Part shown: one piece after another, positions 40,924 to 48,720 of the stretch | Layout of the letters: each line of letters begins with the position of its first letter | Position numbering within the stretch: position 1 is the stretch's first letter | The notes under the pieces: model-generated | Told to the model about the DNA's origin: nothing | The model's database searches: none | What the model saw: only the letters and a program-made list of their open reading frames with translations | Program-made: the position numbers and the translations under genes | NCBI GenBank assembly: GCA_036834665.1 | Contig: DAITNL010000001.1 | Location: forward strand, 984-64,983 | DNA length: 64,000 nucleotides | Origin: Candidatus Competibacteraceae bacterium | GTDB taxonomy: Bacteria > Pseudomonadota > Gammaproteobacteria > Competibacterales > Competibacteraceae | Direction: 5' to 3'

Positions 40924-40999
40924 GGGGCCATAGCTCAGCTGGGAGAGCGCCTGCATGGCATGCAGGAGGTCGGCGGTTCGATCCCGCCTGGCTCCACCA
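40924..40999 (+). tRNA. tRNA-Ala (anticodon GGC)
   Basis: GGGGCCATAGCTCAGCTGGGAGAGCGCCTGCATGGCATGCAGGAGGTCGGCGGTTCGATCCCGCCTGGCTCCACCA. It folds as a cloverleaf with the G3:U70 identity pair and an encoded CCA. Confidence 0.93.
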
Positions 41000-41032: not shown

Positions 41033-41108
41033 GTCCCCATCGTCTAGAGGCCAAGGACACCGCCCTTTCACGGCGGTAACAGGGGTTCGAATCCCCTTGG
41101 GGACGCCA
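41033..41108 (+). tRNA. tRNA-Glu (anticodon UUC)
   Basis: GTCCCCATCGTCTAGAGGCCAAGGACACCGCCCTTTCACGGCGGTAACAGGGGTTCGAATCCCCTTGGGGACGCCA, near-identical to E. coli tRNA-Glu from memory. Confidence 0.95.
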
Positions 41109-41121
41109 ATATTGCAAATGA

Positions 41122-41151
41122 AGGGCCTACTTAAACGTAGGCCCTTTTTTT
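41122..41151 (+). terminator. intrinsic terminator after tRNA-Glu
   Basis: AGGGCCTAC (41122-41130), loop TTAAAC, GTAGGCCCT (41137-41145), then TTTTTT. Confidence 0.8.
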
Positions 41152-41261
41152 GTGCGCCATGTCTAGATTTTCAACCGTACTGCAGCAGTCGAATCGGACT
41201 CGCGCATCTTGTTGCGTGGCCAAGTTTCGATCAGGTCGATGGTCATTATCCGGGAGACAAA

Positions 41262-44200
41262 ATGCCCCGCATCTTCGATAACATCGAAAAATCATTGTTG
41301 CCGGCGCTGCAAGAAACCCTCAAAGTTGCCGAGCGTGCCGATTTCTGTGTTGGCTATTTCAACCTGCGCGGTTGGCGTCATCTTGCCGGGCATGTTGATC
41401 GCTGGGCAGGCGGTGTTGGTCAATGCTGCCGATTGCTGGTTGGCATGCATATCCTACCGAGTGATGAACTCCGGCAAACCCTGCGCACCCGCGAGGATGA
41501 CGATGGCCTCGATAACCAGACCGCGCTACGGGAGAAGCGCCGCATTGCCGAAGAATTTCGCCAACAACTGACCTTTGGTGTTCCAACCAATGCCGATGAA
41601 GCGACGCTGCGCCAGCTCTCCATGCAGATTCGCGCCAACAAGCTGATCGTCAAGGTTTATCTACGCCATCCTCTGCACGCCAAGCTCTACTTGCTGCATC
41701 GGCAAGATGCCAACAACCCCATTACCGGTTTCCTGGGCAGCAGTAACCTCACGCTGGCGGGCTTGGCCAGGCAGGGCGAACTGAACGTCGATGTGCTGGA
41801 ACACGACGCCTGCAACAAACTGATGGATTGGTTTGAGGATCGCTGGCGTGATCGCTGGTGCATCGATATCTCCAGGGAACTGGCCGATATCATCGATGAG
41901 AGCTGGGCGGGCGAAGGTCTGGTGCCGCCCTATCACGTCTATCTCAAGATGGCGTACCACCTCGCCCAGGAAGCGCGGGCCGGACTCGCAGAATTCCGCA
42001 TTCCCCCGGTCTTTGGTCATGCCCTGTTCGATTTCCAGGTGGCGGCAGTCAAGATTGCGGCCCATCACCTGAACAAGCGTGGCGGCGTGCTGATCGGTGA
42101 CGTGGTCGGTTTGGGCAAGTCGATGATGGCCACCGCGCTGGCCAAAGTCTTCGAGGACGATTACCACACCGAAACGCTCATCATCTGCCCCAAGAACCTG
42201 GTTTCGATGTGGGAGGACTACGCGCACCGCTATCGCCTGCATGCCAAGGTGCTGCCGCTGTCCAAAGTGCTGAGCGAGCTCCCGGAGAAAACCCGCCGCT
42301 ACCGGCTGGTCCTCATCGATGAGTCGCACAATCTGCGCAACAAGGAAGGCAAGCGTTGGAACGTCATCCGCGAGTACATCGCGCGCAACGACAGCCTCAC
42401 CGTTCTGCTTTCGGCCACGCCTTACAACAAGAGCTACCGCGATCTTTCCGCACAACTGGCCTTATTCCTGAATGAAGAGGCCGACATCGGCATTCGTCCG
42501 GAAAAACTACTGGCCGAACTGGGTGGCGAGCACGAATTCATCCGTCGTCACCAGTGTGGCGTGCGATCGCTAGCCGCGTTTGAGAAGAGCGAAATTCCCG
42601 ATGACTGGCGCGATCTCATGCGTTTGTACATGGTGCGCCGCACGCGCGGCTTCATCATGCAGCACTACACCCGCGAAGATGAGCGTGGCAAATACCTGTT
42701 GTTCTCGGATGGCCGCAAATCCTATTTCCCGAAGCGTCTGCCGCAGAACCTGCGCTTCAAGATCGACGATGCGAACCCATCCGACCCTTATGCACGCTTC
42801 TACAGCGACCCCGTGGTCAATGCGATCAATGAACTGATCCTGCCGCGCTATGGCCTTGGCAACTACGTCGCCTCCAAGCCAAAAACGCCGCCTACACCTC
42901 ATCAGGCAAAAACGATCGAAGGGCTTTCCCGCGCGGGCACACGCCTGATGGGCTTTTGCCGCACCAATCTTTTCAAGCGCCTGGAAAGTGCGGGCCCGGC
43001 GTTCATTCTGTCCATCGAGCGCCATATCCTGCGCAACTTTATCGTCTTGCACGCCATTGAGAACGGTCTGGACATCCCTTTAGGCACGCAAGGAGCCGAA
43101 CTGCTCGATACACGCCACTACGACGAAGATCCCGATAGCCTGTTGGCTGATGACAACGGTGATGATGACGTTGCCGACCCGACCGCCACTCACGGCCTGC
43201 GCAGTGAGGCTGACTATCGAGCACGCGCTGCCCAGACTTACGCGCTGTACCGCGACGCACTGCAAAACCGCTTCAAATGGTTGCCGGGAACGCTGTTCAT
43301 CAAGGCACTCGCCAAAGATCTGCTCGCGGATGCGCAGTCCTTGTTGCAGATCCTGCACCTGTGCGGTGACTGGCAGGCTGCTGCGGATACCAAGCTGGCA
43401 GCCTTGATCGAACTGATCAAGCAGCGCTACCCGAAGGAAAAACTGCTCGTCTTCACCCAGTTTGCCGACACGGCTCGCTATCTCAAGACGCAGTTGATCG
43501 CGCGCGGTATCAAACAAGTGGAGGAGGCGACCGGGCAGAGCGCCGACCCGACTGCGCTGGCCTGGCATTTTTCGCCGGAATCGAATGGCAAGCGCGAGCA
43601 AATCAAAAAAGCTGAGGAACTGCGCGTGCTGATTGCCACTGATGTGCTTTCCGAAGGCCAGAACCTGCAGGACGCCCACATCATCGTCAACTACGACTTG
43701 CCGTGGGCCATCATCCGCCTGATTCAACGGGCGGGTCGGGTTGACCGCATCGGCCAGCAGTCTGATCAGATTCTCTGTTATTCCTTTGTTCCGGCTGATG
43801 GGGTGGAGCGGCTTATCAAGCTGCGCGCCCGGGTTAAGCAACGTCTGATCGAGAATGCCGAGGTTGTCGGCTCTGACGAAAGCTTCTTCGATGATGACAC
43901 GGATGCAGAATTGATCCGCGATCTGTACACCGAGAAGAACGGCATCCTGGATGACGACGGCGACACCGAGGTCGATCTTGCCTCCTACGCCTACCAGATC
44001 TGGAAAAACGCCACCGATGCCGATCCATCGCTAGCGGCCAAGATTGAGGCCATGCCCAACGTGGTGTATGCCACCAAGGCCCACGAGCACAATCCGGCGT
44101 CGCCCAGCGGTGTGCTGGTCTATATGCGTACCGCGCAGGGCAACGACGCGCTGGCTTGGATGGATGAAGCCGGCAAGGCCGTTACTCAATCCCAGCTCAC

Positions 44201-44642
44201 CATTTTGAAAGCCGCTGCCTGTGCGGCTGACACCCCGGCCCTGTCGCGCACTGAGCATCATCATGCACTCACGCAACAGGGTTTGGCTCATATCATCGAG
44301 GAGGAAAAATCCTTCGGCGGAGCGCTGGGTCGTCCCTCGGGCGCGCGTTTTAAGACCTTTGAGCGCCTCAAGCGCTTCCGTGGCAATCTGGGCGACAAAC
44401 GCGACTTGTTGATCACTGACGAATATGTGCGCCGTATCGACCGGATGATGGAAGAACTCTATCGTTATCCGCTCTACCCGTCGGCCACTGACAGCCTGAA
44501 TCGCCAGCTCAAGGCCGGCATTGGCGACCATCAGTTGCTGGATCTGGTTTTCTCGCTGCGTGAAGACGGGCGTCTGTGCATGATTGACGATCAGGAACAG
44601 CAGAAGGAGCCTAAACTCATCTGCTCGATGGGCCTGGCTTGA
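41262..44642 (+). CDS. PLD-family nuclease domain fused to an SNF2/SF2 helicase (island gene A)
   Basis: ORF 41097..44642. ATG at 41262 follows GGGAGA; the upstream part overlaps tRNA-Glu. PLD HxK...GSxN motif: LHAKLYLL (H at 41676) ...GFLGSSNLT. Helicase motifs: GLGKS (from 42108), LIDESH (D at 42318), LLSATP, and TDVLSEGQNLQ...QRAGRVDRIGQ. Confidence 0.85.
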   Translation: MPRIFDNIEKSLLPALQETLKVAERADFCVGYFNLRGWRHLAGHVDRWAGGVGQCCRLLVGMHILPSDELRQTLRTREDDDGLDNQTALREKRRIAEEFRQQLTFGVPTNADEATLRQLSMQIRANKLIVKVYLRHPLHAKLYLLHRQDANNPITGFLGSSNLTLAGLARQGELNVDVLEHDACNKLMDWFEDRWRDRWCIDISRELADIIDESWAGEGLVPPYHVYLKMAYHLAQEARAGLAEFRIPPVFGHALFDFQVAAVKIAAHHLNKRGGVLIGDVVGLGKSMMATALAKVFEDDYHTETLIICPKNLVSMWEDYAHRYRLHAKVLPLSKVLSELPEKTRRYRLVLIDESHNLRNKEGKRWNVIREYIARNDSLTVLLSATPYNKSYRDLSAQLALFLNEEADIGIRPEKLLAELGGEHEFIRRHQCGVRSLAAFEKSEIPDDWRDLMRLYMVRRTRGFIMQHYTREDERGKYLLFSDGRKSYFPKRLPQNLRFKIDDANPSDPYARFYSDPVVNAINELILPRYGLGNYVASKPKTPPTPHQAKTIEGLSRAGTRLMGFCRTNLFKRLESAGPAFILSIERHILRNFIVLHAIENGLDIPLGTQGAELLDTRHYDEDPDSLLADDNGDDDVADPTATHGLRSEADYRARAAQTYALYRDALQNRFKWLPGTLFIKALAKDLLADAQSLLQILHLCGDWQAAADTKLAALIELIKQRYPKEKLLVFTQFADTARYLKTQLIARGIKQVEEATGQSADPTALAWHFSPESNGKREQIKKAEELRVLIATDVLSEGQNLQDAHIIVNYDLPWAIIRLIQRAGRVDRIGQQSDQILCYSFVPADGVERLIKLRARVKQRLIENAEVVGSDESFFDDDTDAELIRDLYTEKNGILDDDGDTEVDLASYAYQIWKNATDADPSLAAKIEAMPNVVYATKAHEHNPASPSGVLVYMRTAQGNDALAWMDEAGKAVTQSQLTILKAAACAADTPALSRTEHHHALTQQGLAHIIEEEKSFGGALGRPSGARFKTFERLKRFRGNLGDKRDLLITDEYVRRIDRMMEELYRYPLYPSATDSLNRQLKAGIGDHQLLDLVFSLREDGRLCMIDDQEQQKEPKLICSMGLA

Positions 44643-44664
44643 GCAATCAGGGGAAGAACACAAG

Positions 44665-47600
44665 ATGACGATTGACGCTGCCCGCTTCCAGAAACTGCTT
44701 GATGATTTCAAGCTGGAACAACTGTTCAACGAGCTTGGTTGGGAGCGACCCCATCTCAAGCCGCACGCCATCACGGTCAATGATGAGGCTTTCACGCTGA
44801 CCAACGTTGCTCACAAGCGCGGGGTGGCGGTATTTCGCTGTTCGCCCGATCGTGCGGGCCGAGTGCCTACACGTCCGCTGTTGCTCAAGATCGAGAAAGA
44901 AGCGGTTAAGCGTGCCTATGAACATCTCTTGGTTTTTGCCGATGCCGGTGAAACCATGCTCACTTGGCTGTGGGTTTCGCGTGCGCCGGGACAGCCGACC
45001 ACGACCCGCTCCCATACCTGGCGCAAGGGGCAGAACGGCGAATCGTTGCGCCAGAAGCTCTCCCAGATCGTCTGGTCGCTGGAAGAGGAAGAGGCTATCA
45101 CGCTTACTGACGTGATCACCGGCTTGCGCAATGCCTTTGACCGCGACCGCATCTCCAAGAGTTTCTATGAGAAATTCAAGGCCCAGCACGAAGCGTTTGC
45201 CAATTTCATCGAGGGGCTGACTGCTGCCAGCGACAAGGCTTGGTATGCCTCGCTGATGCTCAACCGGCTGATGTTCGTGTATTTCATTCAGAAGAAGGGC
45301 TTTCTGGATGGCGATGAGAATTATCTTGCCAATCGGATGGCTCAGGTGCAGGCGGCGGCCGGCAAGGGCAAGTTCCACAGCTTTTATCGCCAGTTTCTGC
45401 GCCGTCTGTTCCATGAAGGCTTGGGTCAGGCCAAGGGTGAGCGCAACCCTGAACTCAGCCGCCTGATCGGCGATGTTCCTTATTTGAATGGGGGACTTTT
45501 CGACGAGCATGAGCTAGAGATCAAACATCACGATCTCAACGTCCCCGACGAAGCCTTTGAACGCCTGTTCGCGTTTTTCGATGCCTGGGACTGGCATCTT
45601 GATGACCGACCGCTGGCTAGCGGGAAAGAAATCAATCCCGATGTGCTCGGTTATATCTTCGAGAAGTACATCAATCAGAAGCAGATGGGGGCCTACTACA
45701 CCAAGGAAGACATTACCGGGTACATCGCTAAAAACACCGTCGTGCCGCACCTGATCGAGCAGGCCCGCGAGCGTTGCAAGGTGGCGTTCGAGGGTGAAGC
45801 TTCGATGTGGAATCTGCTCCAGGCTGACCCCGATCGCTATATCTACCCGGCGATGAAAACCGGCGTGATTGATGCTGCCGGCACTGTTGTGCCTGAATCC
45901 GCCTTGCCGGATTTTGTGCAGGCCGGTATGAGAGACGCCAAGGCGCGCATGTTCGAGCGTTGCTACAACTTGGGCGAAGCCGTGTTTTATGCCGCTACCG
46001 GTGAGCGGGGTACCTTGCCGACCGAGACTTGGCGTGAATATGTCGAGCGCCGCAGTCGTTGTCTGGCGGTGCGCGATCAACTGGCCAAGGGTGAGGTGAA
46101 GAGTGCCGACGCGCTCATTACCCTGAATTTGGATATTTGCCAGTTTATGCAGGATGTCATCGATCACGCGACATCTCCTGATCTGTTGCGGGCTGTCTGG
46201 CAGGCCATCGTTGGGCGTGTACCATCGAATGGTGACTTACGGCAGAAGTTCCGCCACGGCATCACCATCCTTGACCCGACCTGCGGTTCGGGAGCCTTCC
46301 TCTTTGCTGCTTTGGGTGTGCTGGAACCGCTTTACGAAGCCTGCCTTGAGCGCATGGAAGGCTTTATTGAAGATGCCAAGAAGCTTGGCAAGAGTGGAGA
46401 AAAGGATTTCATCAATGTACTGGCCGAAGTGGACAAGCACCCTTCGCGCCGCTACTACATTTTCAAGAACATCATCCTGCACAACCTGTTCGGCGTGGAC
46501 ATCATGGCCGAGGCGGTGGAAATCTGTAAGCTGCGCCTGTTCCTGAAGCTGGTGTCGCAGGTGGATGTCGGGCGTGAACTGGAGCCGCTGCCCGACATCG
46601 ATTTCAACATCCGCGCCGGCAATACCCTGGTCGGTTACGCTACTGAAGCGCAGTTCGATGCGGCCAATACGCTCGCCAGCGACCAGAGCCACCGCGACGA
46701 GATCAAGGTACGTATTGCCGATCTGGCCGATCTTTTCGACCGCTTCCGTGAACAGCAGACCGTGCACGGCGGCAAGGTCACGGCGGATGACAAGCGCAGG
46801 TTGCGCGACAAGCTGAGCGGCCTGAGCCTGGAACTCGACAAATATCTTTCCCGTGATTACGGCATCGACCCCGACGCTGTCTCCCCTCTCCCTCCGGGAG
46901 AGGGGCCGGGGGTGAGGGCGGATTTCGTCACTTGGCGCAAAAGCCACCAGCCTTTTCACTGGTTCGCCGAGTTCTATGGCGTCATGCGCGCGGGCGGGTT
47001 TGATGTGGTGATTGGGAATCCGCCGTATATCCAACTCAAGGAGATCAGCGAGTATCAACCTCGCGGCTATACCTGTACAGACTGTGGCAACCTTTACCCG
47101 GTAGTTCTTGAGCGGTGTTTATCTATTTGCGCAAAGGGTGGACGACAGGGTTATATCGTTCCCGTATCGTCTATTTCGACTGAAGGGTATAGCTCGTTAC
47201 AGGAGCGCTATCGAAGAAAACGGGTTCATGTCAGTTGTTATGATGACCGTCCCTCTAGGCTATTCGATGGCCTTGAACACATCAGACTTGTCATTTTTCT
47301 ATTGTCTGATAACCAGCCAGCTTGGTTCTCGACGCGCTATCACAAGTGGCACAACCAAGAACGTGCAAGTTTGTTTGATCGTCTGGCGTATGTTCCCGCA
47401 AAGGAATGCATAGTAAAAAATTCGATTCCGAAACTGACGGCTCCAGTGGAGCTATCAATTCTTTCAAAACTCGCTGCGATCTCAATGACAATCGGGGGAA
47501 AATCAGTGCGATCAGGGCCGCACTCGATCAACTTTTCGCGAAAAGTTGGTTACTTTTTGCAGGTGCTCAACTTCCAGCCGCGTGTTGTTGACGGTAATGG

Positions 47601-48042
47601 AAATCTTCGCCCTCCAAGTGAGTTCAAGCCACTGATATTCTCGTCTTTCGCGCAAAAACAATCGGCGCTTGCCTTACTAAATTCAAATCTCTTTTACTGG
47701 TTCATGACGGTTTTTTCTGACTGTCGGCATCTCAACAAGCGGGAAGTTGATGCCATGCCGTTTCCTGATACTTTGCACGCCAAGCCTGATCTGGCAGCCC
47801 AGCTCAATCAACATGCTGAAGATCTGATGGCGAAGTTGCGCGAAACAGCAGATACCAGAAAGATGAAGTTTCGGCACGACAGACTTGAAATTGAATGCAT
47901 CATTCCAAAGCGTAGCAAGCGCTTTATCGACAACATCGATCTTGAAGTGGCCTGCGGTTTCAATTTCAACCCGGAAGAAACCGACTTCATCATCAACTAC
48001 GACATCAAATACCGCATGGGGTCTTCTGACGAAGAAGAATGA
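44665..48042 (+). CDS. MmeI/PglX/Eco57I-type N6-adenine DNA methyltransferase with a large C-terminal (target-recognition-like) region (island gene B)
   Basis: ORF 44584..48042. ATG at 44665 follows AGGGGAAG. Motifs: LMLNRLMFVYFIQKKGFL, VPYLNGGLFDE, MGAYYTKEDI, motif I ILDPTCGSGAFLF (D at 46273) and motif IV VIGNPPYIQ (N at 47017). The last ~330 aa are encoded by much lower-GC DNA. Confidence 0.85.
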   Translation: MTIDAARFQKLLDDFKLEQLFNELGWERPHLKPHAITVNDEAFTLTNVAHKRGVAVFRCSPDRAGRVPTRPLLLKIEKEAVKRAYEHLLVFADAGETMLTWLWVSRAPGQPTTTRSHTWRKGQNGESLRQKLSQIVWSLEEEEAITLTDVITGLRNAFDRDRISKSFYEKFKAQHEAFANFIEGLTAASDKAWYASLMLNRLMFVYFIQKKGFLDGDENYLANRMAQVQAAAGKGKFHSFYRQFLRRLFHEGLGQAKGERNPELSRLIGDVPYLNGGLFDEHELEIKHHDLNVPDEAFERLFAFFDAWDWHLDDRPLASGKEINPDVLGYIFEKYINQKQMGAYYTKEDITGYIAKNTVVPHLIEQARERCKVAFEGEASMWNLLQADPDRYIYPAMKTGVIDAAGTVVPESALPDFVQAGMRDAKARMFERCYNLGEAVFYAATGERGTLPTETWREYVERRSRCLAVRDQLAKGEVKSADALITLNLDICQFMQDVIDHATSPDLLRAVWQAIVGRVPSNGDLRQKFRHGITILDPTCGSGAFLFAALGVLEPLYEACLERMEGFIEDAKKLGKSGEKDFINVLAEVDKHPSRRYYIFKNIILHNLFGVDIMAEAVEICKLRLFLKLVSQVDVGRELEPLPDIDFNIRAGNTLVGYATEAQFDAANTLASDQSHRDEIKVRIADLADLFDRFREQQTVHGGKVTADDKRRLRDKLSGLSLELDKYLSRDYGIDPDAVSPLPPGEGPGVRADFVTWRKSHQPFHWFAEFYGVMRAGGFDVVIGNPPYIQLKEISEYQPRGYTCTDCGNLYPVVLERCLSICAKGGRQGYIVPVSSISTEGYSSLQERYRRKRVHVSCYDDRPSRLFDGLEHIRLVIFLLSDNQPAWFSTRYHKWHNQERASLFDRLAYVPAKECIVKNSIPKLTAPVELSILSKLAAISMTIGGKSVRSGPHSINFSRKVGYFLQVLNFQPRVVDGNGNLRPPSEFKPLIFSSFAQKQSALALLNSNLFYWFMTVFSDCRHLNKREVDAMPFPDTLHAKPDLAAQLNQHAEDLMAKLRETADTRKMKFRHDRLEIECIIPKRSKRFIDNIDLEVACGFNFNPEETDFIINYDIKYRMGSSDEEE
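46881..46921 (+). repeat. REP-like hairpin element inserted in-frame in the methyltransferase gene
   Basis: CCCCTCTCCC (46883-46892) and GGGAGAGGGG (46896-46905) form a 10-bp stem with a 3-nt loop, followed by CCGGGGGTGAGGGCGG. It translates as SPLPPGEGPGVRA. The tail GGGTGAGGGCGG recurs after a similar hairpin at 59903-59945. Confidence 0.6.
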
Positions 48043-48536
48043 AGCCCTTACCCATCACCTTGCCTCCCGCCTGCGCCCAGCGCGCCGGGCCTGAACTCGC
48101 CGCCCGAATCGTCGGTGCTGGCGAAATGGCATTGCTGGCGGAACCGCTGCTCGGCTTCATCGCCTCCCGCGCATGTCCCGGCCACATCCTGCTCGAAACC
48201 CTCGACCGCGTACCGGAATGGATCAAGGCCGGGCGCGTGATCATCAGCGGCTTCCACTCACCGCTGGAACAGCAGGTGCTGCGCTCCGTGCTCCGGCGCA
48301 AGGGCCGCATAGTCAAGGTGCTAGCACGCGGCATGACCGACTATCGCCCAACGGCGGAAGAGCGCGAACCGCTGGCCGCCGGTCGGATGCTGGTTATCAC
48401 CGCCTGCCCACCCAAAATCCAGCGCACCACCCGCGAAACCGCACTGGCGCGCAACCGCCTGGTATTGGCTCTCGCCAGCGAGATCACCGCGCCCTATGTC
48501 ACGGCGGACAGCCCGCTGATGCTATGGCTGAAATAA
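48039..48536 (+). CDS. minimal DprA/Smf-like (SLOG-type Rossmann) protein (island gene C)
   Basis: 165 aa with an ATGA overlap with gene B. LGFIASRACPG..., VIISGFHSPLEQQVLRSVL, IVKVLARGM and ARNRLVLALASEI line up with the DprA motifs vaiVGsR, vvSGlArGiDaaAH, iaVlgtGld and RNRiiaglsd (from memory). Confidence 0.7.
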   Translation: MKPLPITLPPACAQRAGPELAARIVGAGEMALLAEPLLGFIASRACPGHILLETLDRVPEWIKAGRVIISGFHSPLEQQVLRSVLRRKGRIVKVLARGMTDYRPTAEEREPLAAGRMLVITACPPKIQRTTRETALARNRLVLALASEITAPYVTADSPLMLWLK

Positions 48537-48601
48537 CCAAGAACCGATGTGTTGAAAGCTTTTCCTGGGTGCGCGATGGCTGTACCTGGCGCACCACAGA
48601 C

Positions 48602-48634
48602 AAACAAAAAGGGCCTGGCATTTCTGCCAAGCCC
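48602..48634 (-). terminator. intrinsic terminator after tRNA-Asn
   Basis: On the minus strand: GGGCTTGGCA-GAAA-TGCCAGGCCC (one G.U pair) followed by TTTTTGTTTG. Confidence 0.7.
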
Positions 48635-48644
48635 TTGCTTCATC

Positions 48645-48720
<76 letters not shown>

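Follow-up and report, generated by a model that had tools for sequence, protein, structure and literature searches.

A putative restriction-modification-like defence module, widespread and unnamed, with a DprA-like accessory gene in a Competibacteraceae bacterium

Three close-set co-directional genes, designated A, B and C, were found between tRNA-Glu and tRNA-Asn in the window, that is, the whole stretch of 64,000 nucleotides analysed from Candidatus Competibacteraceae bacterium. A and B are a conserved pair linked across many phyla, and C is an accessory often found with them but outside the core. It is reasonably probable that A and B constitute an ATP-dependent restriction-modification (R-M) system built from unusual parts, in which A is proposed as the putative restriction subunit and B as the putative modification and target-recognition subunit, with C serving as a non-essential regulatory or safety accessory. 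The triad would represent a widespread, unnamed R-M-like DNA defence module, of which the DprA-like accessory is novel.

The positions of the genes and their parts are listed in Table 1. The preliminary description of this DNA had placed the three genes between tRNA-Glu on the forward strand and tRNA-Asn on the reverse strand, each with its own terminator, and these bounds were recovered by ARAGORN, Rfam and a hairpin scan. The short A–B gap and the ATGA overlap of the B stop and C start, also described there, agree with the coordinates read from the sequence; by this overlap, C is predicted to be translationally coupled to B. The hairpin 3' of tRNA-Asn may also end read-through out of C. A search of the leader for the sigma-70 consensus gave no match. 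At other loci the leader position is occupied by a small HTH_17 (mad1-like) gene, which is missing at the present locus. The island has tRNAs and housekeeping genes on its borders, and no integrase, transposase or att-like direct repeat was found at it, as had been stated.

Table 1. Features of the A-B-C island and its borders (positions in the window)
Feature	Position	Strand	Basis
tRNA-Ala(ggc), upstream neighbour	40924..40999	+	ARAGORN; Rfam tRNA 62.7 bits
tRNA-Glu(ttc), left edge of island	41033..41108	+	ARAGORN; Rfam
Intrinsic-terminator-like hairpin 3' of tRNA-Glu	41120..41147	+	11-pair stem then T run
Leader 5' of gene A	41153..41261	+	
Gene A, PLD (HKD) nuclease + SNF2-family ATPase/translocase fusion	41262..44642	+	ATG start, 1126 aa; Pfam
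HKD motif of A (H139, K141 ... G159-S-S-N-L-T164)	41676..41753	+	HAKLYLLH...GSSNLT, aa 139-164
SNF2 motor of A, including Helicase_C lobe	41973..43757	+	Pfam, family alignment, motif positions
Walker A of A, GLGKS, aa 283	42108-42122	+	Sequence motif
DESH of A, aa 353	42318-42329	+	Sequence motif
Motif VI of A, QRAGRVDRIGQ, aa 822	43725-43757	+	Sequence motif
A–B spacer, 22 nt, Shine-Dalgarno-like GGGGAAG inside	44643..44664	+	Direct sequence reading
Gene B, gamma-class N6-adenine DNA methyltransferase (Eco57I/MmeI/PglX type) + C-terminal TRD	44665..48042	+	ATG start, 1125 aa; Pfam
N-terminal alpha/beta domain of B, aa 1-120	44665..45024	+	AlphaFold2 pLDDT 80-90 over domain
Methyltransferase core of B	46255..47214	+	Pfam, family alignment, motifs
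Motif I of B, DPTCGSGAF, aa 537	46273-46299	+	Sequence motif
Motif IV of B, NPPY, aa 785	47017-47028	+	Sequence motif
TRD of B, aa ~826-1125, hypervariable low-GC cassette	47140..48039	+	Identity + GC comparison
Gene C, DprA-type Rossmann domain standing alone, shortened at its C-terminus	48039..48536	+	165 aa; Pfam
Terminator-like hairpin 3' of tRNA-Asn	48609..48636	-	12-pair stem
tRNA-Asn(gtt), right edge of island	48645..48720	-	ARAGORN; Rfam 69.1 bits

By Pfam analysis, A contains PLDc_2, RE_NgoFVII, SNF2-rel_dom and Helicase_C domains. All the motifs of A and B named in the preliminary description are present and intact, and its H139/K141 numbering is correct. Little or no variation was seen at H139, K141, GSSNLT, GxGK, DESH and QRAGRVDRIGQ among 82 A-family proteins from many phyla, and each protein carries just one full HKD motif. 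The invariance of this motif argues for genuine phosphodiester cleavage.

B matched Eco57I (2.8e-23) and MmeI_Mtase of Pfam, and DPTCGSGAF and NPP are almost invariant across its family. True Type IIG enzymes carry an N-terminal nuclease, whereas B appears to be without one. Amino acids 1-198 of B matched zero Pfam families, and no conserved D...ExK was found in the B-family alignment. The best Foldseek matches of the N-terminal domain, Hjc and the SPARDA nuclease, were non-significant, and the modelled domain may be a nuclease-like fold that has no catalytic residues. Based on the missing motifs and the non-significant fold search, B probably has no nuclease of its own. The C-terminal TRD is hypervariable: among close relatives, aa 1-750 are 77-95% identical vs 23-35% for aa 826-1125, and between sister strains (L183 island) gltX, A and the B core are 98%, 98% and 97% identical vs 31% for the TRD. 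This is the pattern expected of R-M specificity.

The composition of the island was described as unlike that of its flanks, and this held, with a GC content of 0.55-0.59 for the island against 0.60-0.66 for the flanks. The low-GC patch (0.47 at 47000-47999) is the TRD cassette (TRD, 0.46-0.47), which appears to have been swapped, and gene C stands at 0.65. The GC pattern of the cassette is intrinsic, being seen in hosts of any GC content. Related Competibacteraceae carry the island at the same site, flanked by exact tRNA-Glu copies in L183, L185 and L186, and A, B and C have diverged there at much the same pace as gltX and uvrB. Fresh acquisition was rejected on these grounds; in this lineage the island has been passed down by vertical inheritance.

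Relatives of A are encoded in at least 569 species genomes. In the best 80 loci of these (A identity, 59-87%), wherever sequence continues beyond A, the next gene is in almost all cases a co-oriented B homologue, and the A–B gap is ~20-30 nt in almost all, across many phyla. Besides B, the C family recurs in 35 of these 80 loci, and every further gene family in 6 or fewer. The identical triad with the identical ATGA overlap recurs amid unrelated flanks, which is more than chance would give. The R-M-like logic proposed earlier resides in a real conserved co-directional module. Of the 45 A-anchored loci whose sequence extends 3 kb or more past B, 29 have a C-family gene following B in the same orientation; when C was the search anchor, B was found in 13/13 and A in 11/13 loci with at least 8 kb of upstream sequence, so the association holds from either anchor, and the overlap is kept across the clade of C. 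Conservation therefore holds for the A–B pair, and C is no obligate third member. The frequency of C marks it as accessory rather than core, and since about one-third of the A–B loci are devoid of it (e.g., a Burkholderia locus), whatever C does is dispensable or replaceable.

The identification of C as DprA-like was supported by Pfam DNA_processg_A (E 3.1e-9; profile positions 33-159 of 212), even though C missed the NCBIfam DprA cut-off. Its top model match was PADLOC PsyrA (PsyrA/RqlI; 1.4e-16), and it also matched DprA of PDB 3UQZ (E 1.4e-3). The AlphaFold2 model of C gave a pLDDT of 57, and a fold search with this poor model brought no informative match. The dN/dS of C is 0.16-0.23.

In the libraries and literature searched, no named system of this composition was found, and DprA-like members were found only in the PsyrTA and ShosTA toxin-antitoxin pairs; beyond these, the earlier statement that no known R-M, DISARM or BREX type includes such a component was borne out. 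The further claim of an undescribed system needs to be divided. The triad is unnamed and no description of it was found in the literature, but the B family is already catalogued as Type IIG in PADLOC, with M.Ssp6803IV as a studied member, and one paper remarks in passing that a PLD-SNF helicase gene is paired with a Type IIG-like gene (PMC9881135).

On plasmid pSYSX of Synechocystis 6803, an A homologue (52% identity, motifs intact) is located upstream of a gene for an 1100-aa methyltransferase with 43% identity to B over its full length; the C family is missing from this locus. From its size and the replicon that carries it, the methyltransferase is taken to be Slr6050, or M.Ssp6803IV, to which the one-strand motif GA(m6A)GGC was indirectly assigned and for which full segregation of the mutant was never achieved (PMC6105098). 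Such behaviour is expected of a methylase guarding against an active partner nuclease, a connection to the helicase gene that the original authors did not draw.

Taken as an R-M system, the C-terminal TRD of B would recognise a short asymmetric site, and B would methylate one adenine on one strand, thereby marking self DNA. Since B apparently lacks the Type IIG N-terminal nuclease, DNA cleavage would be left to A, which B may recruit or license at unmethylated sites, and which would move along double-stranded DNA by its SNF2 motor. With one HKD half-site per A, cutting should take place only when two A molecules meet, either as a constitutive dimer or as two converging complexes. Convergence would provide an orientation logic sparing hemi-methylated host DNA, as in Type III and Type ISP; this collision or dimerisation logic is inferred by analogy with these systems and with BfiI/Nuc. 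C might bind single-stranded DNA and/or a partner and thereby disfavour self-restriction, either by holding back the helicase-nuclease, much as RqlI/PsyrA does with RqlH (RqlI binds a helicase and restrains it; PMC4670107), or by promoting methylation, as does H. pylori DprA, which is inhibitory to restriction enzymes and stimulatory to methyltransferases (PMC3597690).

Both DISARM and BREX also combine SNF2 and methylase components and may not work by simple cleavage. A reduced system of this kind, with A as fused DrmC and DrmD and B as DrmMI/PglX, could do without classical cleavage at specific sites and instead prevent phage DNA from entering or being replicated. The PADLOC matches of A (the CRISPR-accessory family C3a139 best, then DrmD and BrxHI) and of B (DrmMI and PglX, E 1e-22 to 1e-10) conform to it, as do the name 'BREX-1 PglX' given to a B homologue in one source and the one-strand asymmetric Synechocystis motif, which resembles BREX and DISARM methylation. 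We judge it unlikely, however, because the NCBIfam scores fall far under the cut-offs (DrmD, 131 vs 610; PglX, 60 vs 500), the invariant HKD motif favours real cleavage, and drmA, drmB/DUF1998, pglZ and brxC are absent from the operon, as had been noted, and do not recur in the best 80 loci. Separation into two systems, a self-contained Type IIG enzyme B with its own N-terminal nuclease and an autonomous PLD-helicase or modification-dependent (Type IV-like, SauUSI-style) nuclease A, with C as a passenger, is quite improbable. PADLOC recognised only B, by a REBASE-derived Type IIG model spanning it end to end (REase_MTase_IIG PDLC03628, 992 bits), and the compact N-terminal domain of B resembles, non-significantly, PD-(D/E)xK nucleases; yet this region is devoid of the D...ExK motif and of Pfam matches over its first ~200 aa, and the homologue from Synechocystis is entered in REBASE under the prefix 'M.' alone (PMC6105098). 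Single-gene PLD-helicase anti-phage families do exist (PADLOC PLD_Helicase; NCBIfam NF042964) and have the helicase C-lobe in common with A, but A scored 131 bits against the NF042964 cut-off of 1100, and an adjacent, co-directional and co-diverging A–B pair is not what random clustering within defence islands would produce.

C might instead be a trigger, detecting phage ssDNA, recombination intermediates or a SLOG-type nucleotide ligand and then activating the A nuclease. The DprA-family domain of ShosA binds ssDNA and RecA (PMC12961424); the DprA/Smf domain is a member of the SLOG superfamily, whose domains sense nucleotide signals in other defence proteins such as ThsA; and C keeps the conserved ASR and RNR, together with several arginines that are invariant. 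This role is distinctly unlikely, since many A–B systems have no C and yet appear to be active (the methylase in Synechocystis being indispensable), so that activation by C cannot be required. In addition, it is the methylase rather than the nuclease that the coupling joins to C, and GFHSPxE stands in place of the GxAxGID loop of canonical DprA. A non-defence function in chromosome maintenance or transformation, with an orphan regulatory methylase, an SNF2 remodeller/nuclease and a DprA-like recombination mediator forming an epigenetic or repair module, appears highly improbable. Transformation is the classical role of DprA, SNF2 proteins such as RapA do housekeeping, and the island is inherited beside uvrB in this lineage; against these stand a hypervariable and apparently exchanged TRD, a patchy distribution across phyla with 90% identity between different orders, plasmid-borne homologues, and neighbours at related loci that are typical of defence and toxin-antitoxin functions, including GmrSD, AAA ATPases (k3, k25, k27), ParE/Phd, VapC and an integrase.

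The layout given in the preliminary description, three co-directional genes bounded by tRNA genes with an overlap between B and C, agreed with the ARAGORN and Rfam predictions and with the ORF coordinates. Genes A, B and C occupy the whole interval between tRNA-Glu and tRNA-Asn, and the genes on both flanks are housekeeping genes, a glmU-like gene and gltX upstream and an aminotransferase gene and uvrB downstream. No integrase, transposase or att-like repeat was found at the island, as had been reported, and no RNA genes other than tRNAs were found within it. The 110-nt leader that separates gene A from the terminator of tRNA-Glu (41153-41261) contains no match to a sigma-70-like promoter. The GC content is 0.60-0.66 in the flanks, 0.55-0.59 in A and most of B, 0.47 at 47000-47999, and 0.65 in C. 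The two bracketing terminators share an inverted match of 16 nt with 88% complementarity (41139-41154, AGGCCCTTTTTTTGTG; 48601-48616, CAAACAAAAAGGGCCT), which may be a chance likeness of a GC stem followed by a T run.

Positions of the genes and signals of the tRNA-bounded island in the window
Feature	Position	Strand	Size	Remarks
tRNA-Ala(ggc)	40924-40999	+		ARAGORN, Rfam
tRNA-Glu(ttc)	41033-41108	+		ARAGORN, Rfam
Terminator-like hairpin 3' of tRNA-Glu	41120-41147			
Gene A	41262-44642		1126 aa	counted from the first ATG
Gene B	44665-48042		1125 aa	preceded by a 22-nt spacer with a Shine-Dalgarno-like GGGGAAG
Gene C	48039-48536		165 aa	ATG overlapping the TGA of B
Terminator-like hairpin 3' of tRNA-Asn	48636-48609			
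tRNA-Asn(gtt)	48645-48720	-		ARAGORN, Rfam

Pfam matches in protein A define an HKD domain of the PLD/NgoFVII type (aa 111-195) and two helicase lobes, the SNF2 N-lobe and Helicase_C. Across 82 aligned members from many phyla, H139, K141, G159-SSNLT, Walker A GxGK, DESH and motif VI (QRAGRVDRIGQ) are invariant or nearly so, and the earlier numbering of H139 and K141 is correct. The HKD motif reads HAKLYLLH-x12-GSSNLT, in which H, K and GSSN occur in all 82 sequences and the position of the canonical D in HxK(x)4D(x)6GSxN is H or variable (28% conserved). By this motif, A belongs to the PLD (HKD) nuclease superfamily together with Nuc, BfiI and NgoFVII. Single-HKD nucleases such as Nuc and BfiI must dimerize to build an active site; each A chain carries only one full HKD motif, implying by analogy that the active site of A would be formed by a dimer. 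The NCBIfam model for a PLD anti-phage protein gave 131 bits with A, against its cut-off of 1100. The top PADLOC match of A, 'C3a139 HKD+Snf2', was rejected as a system name, being merely a CRISPR type III-associated accessory family from a survey (PMC6546367).

Protein B is a gamma-class N6-adenine methyltransferase with motif I DPTCGSGAF (aa 537-545) located ahead of NPPY (aa 785-788), and it matched the Pfam families Eco57I (2.8e-23) and MmeI_Mtase, with a weak match to the MmeI helical spacer. B is a member of the Eco57I/MmeI/PglX lineage. The REBASE-derived PADLOC model REase_MTase_IIG PDLC03628 matched B end to end with 992 bits, and B shares with Type IIG proteins the fusion of a gamma-class methyltransferase to a TRD in one large polypeptide. 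The AlphaFold2 model of the first 530 aa was mixed as a whole (pLDDT 65.4) and good for the N-terminal domain, the first 120 residues forming a confident alpha/beta domain (pLDDT 80-90). Since B aa 1-198 have no match to Pfam families, since no conserved D...ExK was detected among 21 diverse homologues, and since a Foldseek search of the PDB with the B model gave nothing at E<=0.001 and only non-significant PD-(D/E)xK-like matches at E~0.5 (Hjc, SPARDA nuclease), we infer that a nuclease of B's own is probably absent or inactive. A PDB sequence search with B gave no match. A B-like protein of Candidatus Competibacteraceae, P0198 (1107 aa), is 84% identical over half of B; in its other half, DUF559 (Vsr-like endonuclease) and MTES_1575 domains take the place of the usual TRD.

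Protein C matched the Pfam DprA Rossmann domain (3.1e-9, profile positions 33-159 of 212), and matched better the PADLOC model of PsyrA (1.4e-16, 58.6 bits, positions 122-244 of 398); a full-length relative of C reached 2.9e-22 with the latter. The sole match in a PDB sequence search was DprA 3UQZ (E 1.4e-3). With 165 aa and 31.8 bits for TIGR00732 (dprA; cut-off 191), C is not a full-length DprA, which comprises a SAM-like N-domain, a complete Rossmann fold and a C-terminal domain. Distant members of the C family, 200-255 aa in length, span the entire DprA Rossmann domain, and the clade of the window's C is without the final ~45 residues. The family retains ASR, RNR and several invariant arginines, and has GFHSPxE in place of the GxAxGID loop of DprA. 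A total of 588 representative clusters were obtained at E<=1e-10, almost all of short stand-alone proteins; among 150 representatives no informative domain fusion was found, apart from one with IS200 that is probably an artefact. AlphaFold2 modelled C poorly (pLDDT 57), and Foldseek found nothing in the PDB for this model at E<=0.001; for both B and C, the structure results count as weak hints.

The neighbourhood of these genes was examined from both ends. A search with C identified 906 homologues, the best 120 of which all have 78-100% identity at lengths of 165-181 aa and belong to Competibacteraceae, Malikia, Halothiobacillaceae and others. The C-homologue contexts examined were all A-B-C with the B/C overlap and with differing flanks; between these hosts, identity is 90-92% for A, ~70% for B and 79-82% for C. 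By scanning one genome per species for A, at least 569 genomes with an A relative were identified. The best 80 of these relatives, 59-87% identical to A, are distributed among Proteobacteria, Nitrospirota, Chloroflexota, Acidobacteriota, Latescibacterota, Poribacteria, Cyanobacteria, Verrucomicrobiota, Planctomycetota and Bacillota, and B lies directly downstream of A in nearly all of the best 80 loci having sequence there. With the C-family HMM, a same-strand C gene was detected after B in 29 of the 45 loci with at least 3 kb past B, adjacent to B or after one to five inserted genes, and at other positions in three more loci. Beyond B and C, any one gene family is shared by six of the 80 A loci at most. 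In the reverse test, metagenomes were scanned with the C-family alignment: among C-anchored loci with at least 8 kb upstream, B was present in 13 of 13 and A in 11 of 13, the other two ending at a contig edge, and with at least 1.5 kb upstream B was present in 32 of 42. A few C genes stand alone beside housekeeping genes (loci L102 and L131). Carriage by phages was rejected, as 2.9 million viral contigs gave only 13 matches. The triad is thus real, beyond chance, and the counts from both sides point to A-B as the core and to C as its most frequent, specific and dispensable accessory; conservation of all three genes together, the check suggested in the preliminary description, holds in nearly all loci for A-B and in part of them for C.

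An extended form of the cassette was observed in Thauera mechernichensis (GCA_964020635.1; locus L189, 2379-12741) and in loci L001-L003 and L005. A small HTH_17 gene that is mad1-like by PADLOC (E 9e-13) comes first; A, B and C follow, then a 277-aa protein belonging to no family, the start of which overlaps the stop of C, and finally DUF4062 and a protein with SLFN_AlbA_2/HATPase_c_4. Of these, the window contains A-B-C alone. In four loci (L070, 16657-17226; L015, L022 and L035), including those of Roseovarius sp. 217 and Mesorhizobium, B is directly followed by a member of a ~190-aa family that neither Pfam nor PADLOC recognizes and that may be an accessory used instead of C. In Burkholderia (GCA_904850255.1, locus L187), A-B without C is located beside a tyrosine integrase and a GmrSD-type gene, indicating that the A-B pair also moves on integrative elements.

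The location between two tRNA genes and a GC content differing from that of the flanks might be taken for the signs of a recently acquired island. In related Competibacteraceae genomes, however, the island occupies the same site between identical tRNAs, and its divergence, the TRD aside, is like that of the host genes (see the table below). Together with the absence of an integrase and att repeat, this rules out a recent horizontal insertion; the island is passed on vertically within this lineage, with recombination swapping the TRD. Among close relatives, B aa 1-750 are 77-95% identical, whereas aa 826-1125 are only 23-35% identical, and the latter segment coincides exactly with the stretch of 0.46-0.47 GC. 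This patch was also weighed as a sign of foreign DNA and rejected: it is the TRD cassette itself, and the same pattern recurs in hosts of 0.54-0.66 GC, in which A and the B core are ~0.58, the TRD 0.47-0.50 and C 0.61-0.68. The difference in composition noticed in the preliminary description is therefore genuine, and is intrinsic to the cassette rather than evidence for recent transfer. The host-like GC of C and its position beside tRNA-Asn could in turn mark a resident host gene or a pseudogene fragment. This was likewise ruled out, since C accompanies A-B with the ATGA overlap in unrelated flanks, is high in GC in every host, and is under purifying selection (dN/dS 0.16-0.23).

Identity of island and flanking proteins between the window and same-site islands of related Competibacteraceae
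Protein	Window vs L183	Window vs L185/L186
GltX	98%	96%
A	98%	94%
B aa 1-750	97%	93%
B TRD (aa 826-1125)	31%	28%
C	98%	87%
UvrB	99.6%	98%

Such replacement of the TRD is classically seen in R-M specificity modules. The TRDs of the window (47140-48039) and of loci L002, L005, L007, L009, L185 and L189 are 23-35% identical as proteins and ~0.47-0.50 in GC irrespective of the GC of the host (0.54-0.66), which suggests that the exchangeable TRDs are drawn from a common, compositionally distinct pool. In the closest relative, which has the same gltX/tRNA-Glu ... tRNA-Asn/uvrB site (L183, 9517-11193), an inserted ParE/Phd toxin-antitoxin pair separates B from C and a second ParE with an HTH_17 gene lies 3' of C, indicating that the small tRNA-bounded gap is a hotspot of insertion.

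Type ISP enzymes such as LlaGI and LlaBIII combine a nuclease, an SF2 ATP-dependent dsDNA translocase, a gamma-class N6-adenine methyltransferase and a TRD; they recognize asymmetric sites, methylate one strand, and cleave only when translocating enzymes converge. A-B differs from Type ISP, which is a single polypeptide with an Mrr-type nuclease, in that the functions are divided between two polypeptides, the nuclease is of PLD/HKD type and not Mrr/PD-(D/E)xK, the motor is of the SNF2 family, the methylase is of the Eco57I/MmeI lineage with a long N-terminal region, and a DprA-like third gene is often present. Type III systems (Mod/Res) are similar in having two subunits with specificity in the methylase and restriction in the helicase-nuclease, and in their asymmetric sites and one-strand methylation, but Mod is beta-class, Res joins a PD-(D/E)xK nuclease to an SF2 ATPase outside the SNF2 family, and A-B does not belong to these sequence families. 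Type IIG enzymes of the MmeI/Eco57I family share with B the architecture of helical spacer, methyltransferase and TRD, but cut with their own N-terminal PD-(D/E)xK domain independently of ATP, whereas B is paired with the A helicase-nuclease in nearly all loci. Class 1 DISARM draws on similar parts, with DrmC as PLD nuclease, DrmD as SNF2 helicase and DrmMI as large adenine methylase; in the island, however, PLD and SNF2 are fused in A, and neither of the core genes, drmA (helicase) and drmB (DUF1998), occurs in the operon, which is bounded by tRNAs, gltX, the aminotransferase gene and uvrB. The scores agree with this distinction: 130.8 bits for NCBIfam DISARM_DrmD (cut-off 610), and 77 bits for PADLOC DrmMI with B against the score of the IIG model. 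NCBIfam BREX-1 PglX gave 59.7 bits (cut-off 500), and the BREX genes pglZ and brxC/pglY that accompany pglX were absent from the operon and from its conserved neighbours. The statement that drmA, drmB, pglZ and brxC are lacking is thus borne out for the operon and for recurrent neighbours in 80 loci, and the proposed likeness to Type III, split Type ISP and class 1 DISARM is one of parts and not of membership. In function, the closest relatives are Type ISP and Type III R-M, of which A-B is a split analogue; by its components, A-B comes nearest to class 1 DISARM.

DprA-like proteins are also present in PsyrTA/RqlHI, where the protein binds an SF2 helicase, and in ShosTA. The PsyrA-type antitoxins are ~300-400 aa in length, whereas C is a Rossmann core without N- and C-terminal domains; its partners are the SNF2-PLD protein and the methylase, no PsyrT- or ShosT-like gene (RecQ-PRTase or PRTase toxin) is present, and C is dispensable in many loci. 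The Hma system (SNF2 helicase, methylase and ATPase) was rejected, its nuclease, methylase and ATPase genes being different and the match between A and HmaA being limited to the helicase C-lobe. With the 2023 models of PADLOC, B alone would be called, namely as Type IIG. The one trace of the A-B architecture found in the literature is a table entry. This entry of Milman et al. (2023; PMC9881135) lists a Type II R-M CDS homologous to Cj0031 with an adjacent CDS for PLD and SNF helicase as a target of programmed TRD inversions, without name, mechanism or third gene; the pair has the two-gene architecture of A-B. The full-text literature that was searched, which includes few subscription-journal papers, gave no description of the triad, although an earlier one may exist, and no R-M, DISARM or BREX operon reported to contain a DprA-like gene. 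The original designation as a candidate undescribed defence system stands for the triad as such, and not for the A-B architecture or the family of B. The island is best restated as a widespread, unnamed two-gene ATP-dependent R-M variant, in which a PLD-SNF2 restriction subunit is paired with a methylase-TRD subunit of MmeI/Eco57I-like type, with a specific, facultative DprA-like accessory; it offers no categorically new mechanism, and is an old resident of the lineage and not a recent insertion. In Halomonas meridiana Hm43005, a BREX-1 locus contains a PsyrTA pair (DprA-like antitoxin and RecQ-like helicase) between its pglX and brxC genes (PMC11232893), a further instance of a DprA-like gene adjoining a PglX-type methylase.

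A-B is probably an R-M-like system, and the following scheme is proposed. The TRD of B would read a short asymmetric site, of which B would methylate a single strand. At unmethylated sites, B would recruit or license A, and the SNF2 motor would carry A along dsDNA until two HKD half-sites meet, within a constitutive dimer or between converging complexes, as required for the cut. A head-to-head site logic like that of Type III and Type ISP would spare freshly replicated host DNA, and C would tip the balance toward self-protection. As to C, a role as brake or methylation helper is put forward only tentatively. The view of C as modulator of self-protection is supported by three precedents: RqlI/PsyrA, the top model match of C, binds the RecQ-like helicase RqlH and limits its genotoxicity (PMC4670107); H. 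pylori DprA binds methyltransferases, boosts methylation and blocks restriction (PMC3597690); and ShosA binds ssDNA and RecA (PMC12961424). The interaction of H. pylori DprA with methyltransferases parallels the translational coupling of C to B, which fits a methylase-associated role, although H. pylori DprA is encoded on the chromosome as a competence protein and affects many systems in trans, and C is a dedicated truncated paralogue inside an R-M operon. C is missing from a third of the loci and thus is not needed for the basic function. A bolder alternative holds that A-B is a distinct phylum-spanning ATP-dependent R-M class alongside Types I, III and ISP, made up of a PLD-SNF2 restriction subunit and a methylase/TRD subunit like MmeI, with C as a dedicated ssDNA/RecA-responsive gate coupling restriction to the replication/recombination state; this we consider unlikely. 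If C were such a gate, it could steer the methylase to new or incoming ssDNA or keep the nuclease off host forks, and the system would have built-in restriction alleviation of a kind so far not known among R-M types.

The A-B pair with C as its accessory matters also for annotation. Current tools label the methylase only ('Type IIG', 'Eco57I domain protein') and leave its partner as 'helicase-related protein', so that the restriction component of a common system, with A relatives in so many species-level genomes, is invisible in defence-system censuses. A DprA-like protein tied to a methylase offers a tractable case of how one-strand-methylating R-M systems spare the host, bears on the recruitment of DprA-type domains into immunity as in PsyrTA and ShosTA, and raises the concrete question of the role of such a domain inside a restriction system. 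The exchangeable TRD cassettes might be of use as programmable methylases.

By tblastn against plasmids, A homologues were found on 26 records, nearly all annotated by PGAP as 'helicase-related protein'. One of these records is pSYSX of Synechocystis sp. PCC 6803, with an A homologue of 52% identity, SGL_RS01585 at 43696-47151, in which HKD, Walker A, DESH and motif VI are intact. A small vapBC-like insertion separates this gene from that of a 1100-aa 'DNA methyltransferase' which is 43% identical to B over the full length. No C gene is present at this locus. From its size and replicon, the methyltransferase is taken to be Slr6050 (SGL_RS01600), named M.Ssp6803IV, to which the motif GA(m6A)GGC was assigned indirectly (Hagemann et al., PMC6105098). 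The complement of GAAGGC lacks adenine, and hence methylation would be on one strand only; this motif is the sole hint at the asymmetric-site, one-strand logic of Type ISP and Type III. The slr6050 mutant never fully segregated and the gene was termed essential, and the helicase gene is not mentioned in the same report (PMC6105098). An indispensable methylase adjoining an intact nuclease-helicase is as expected of a live R-M system, and recognition of A-B as a pair would account for the undeletable M.Ssp6803IV in Synechocystis 6803. On the same plasmid (pSYSX 34696-56139, locus L089), the B homologue is followed by a DUF2513 gene and then by a cluster of ThiF, E2, multiubiquitin and DUF6527 genes of the ubiquitin-like-conjugation type.
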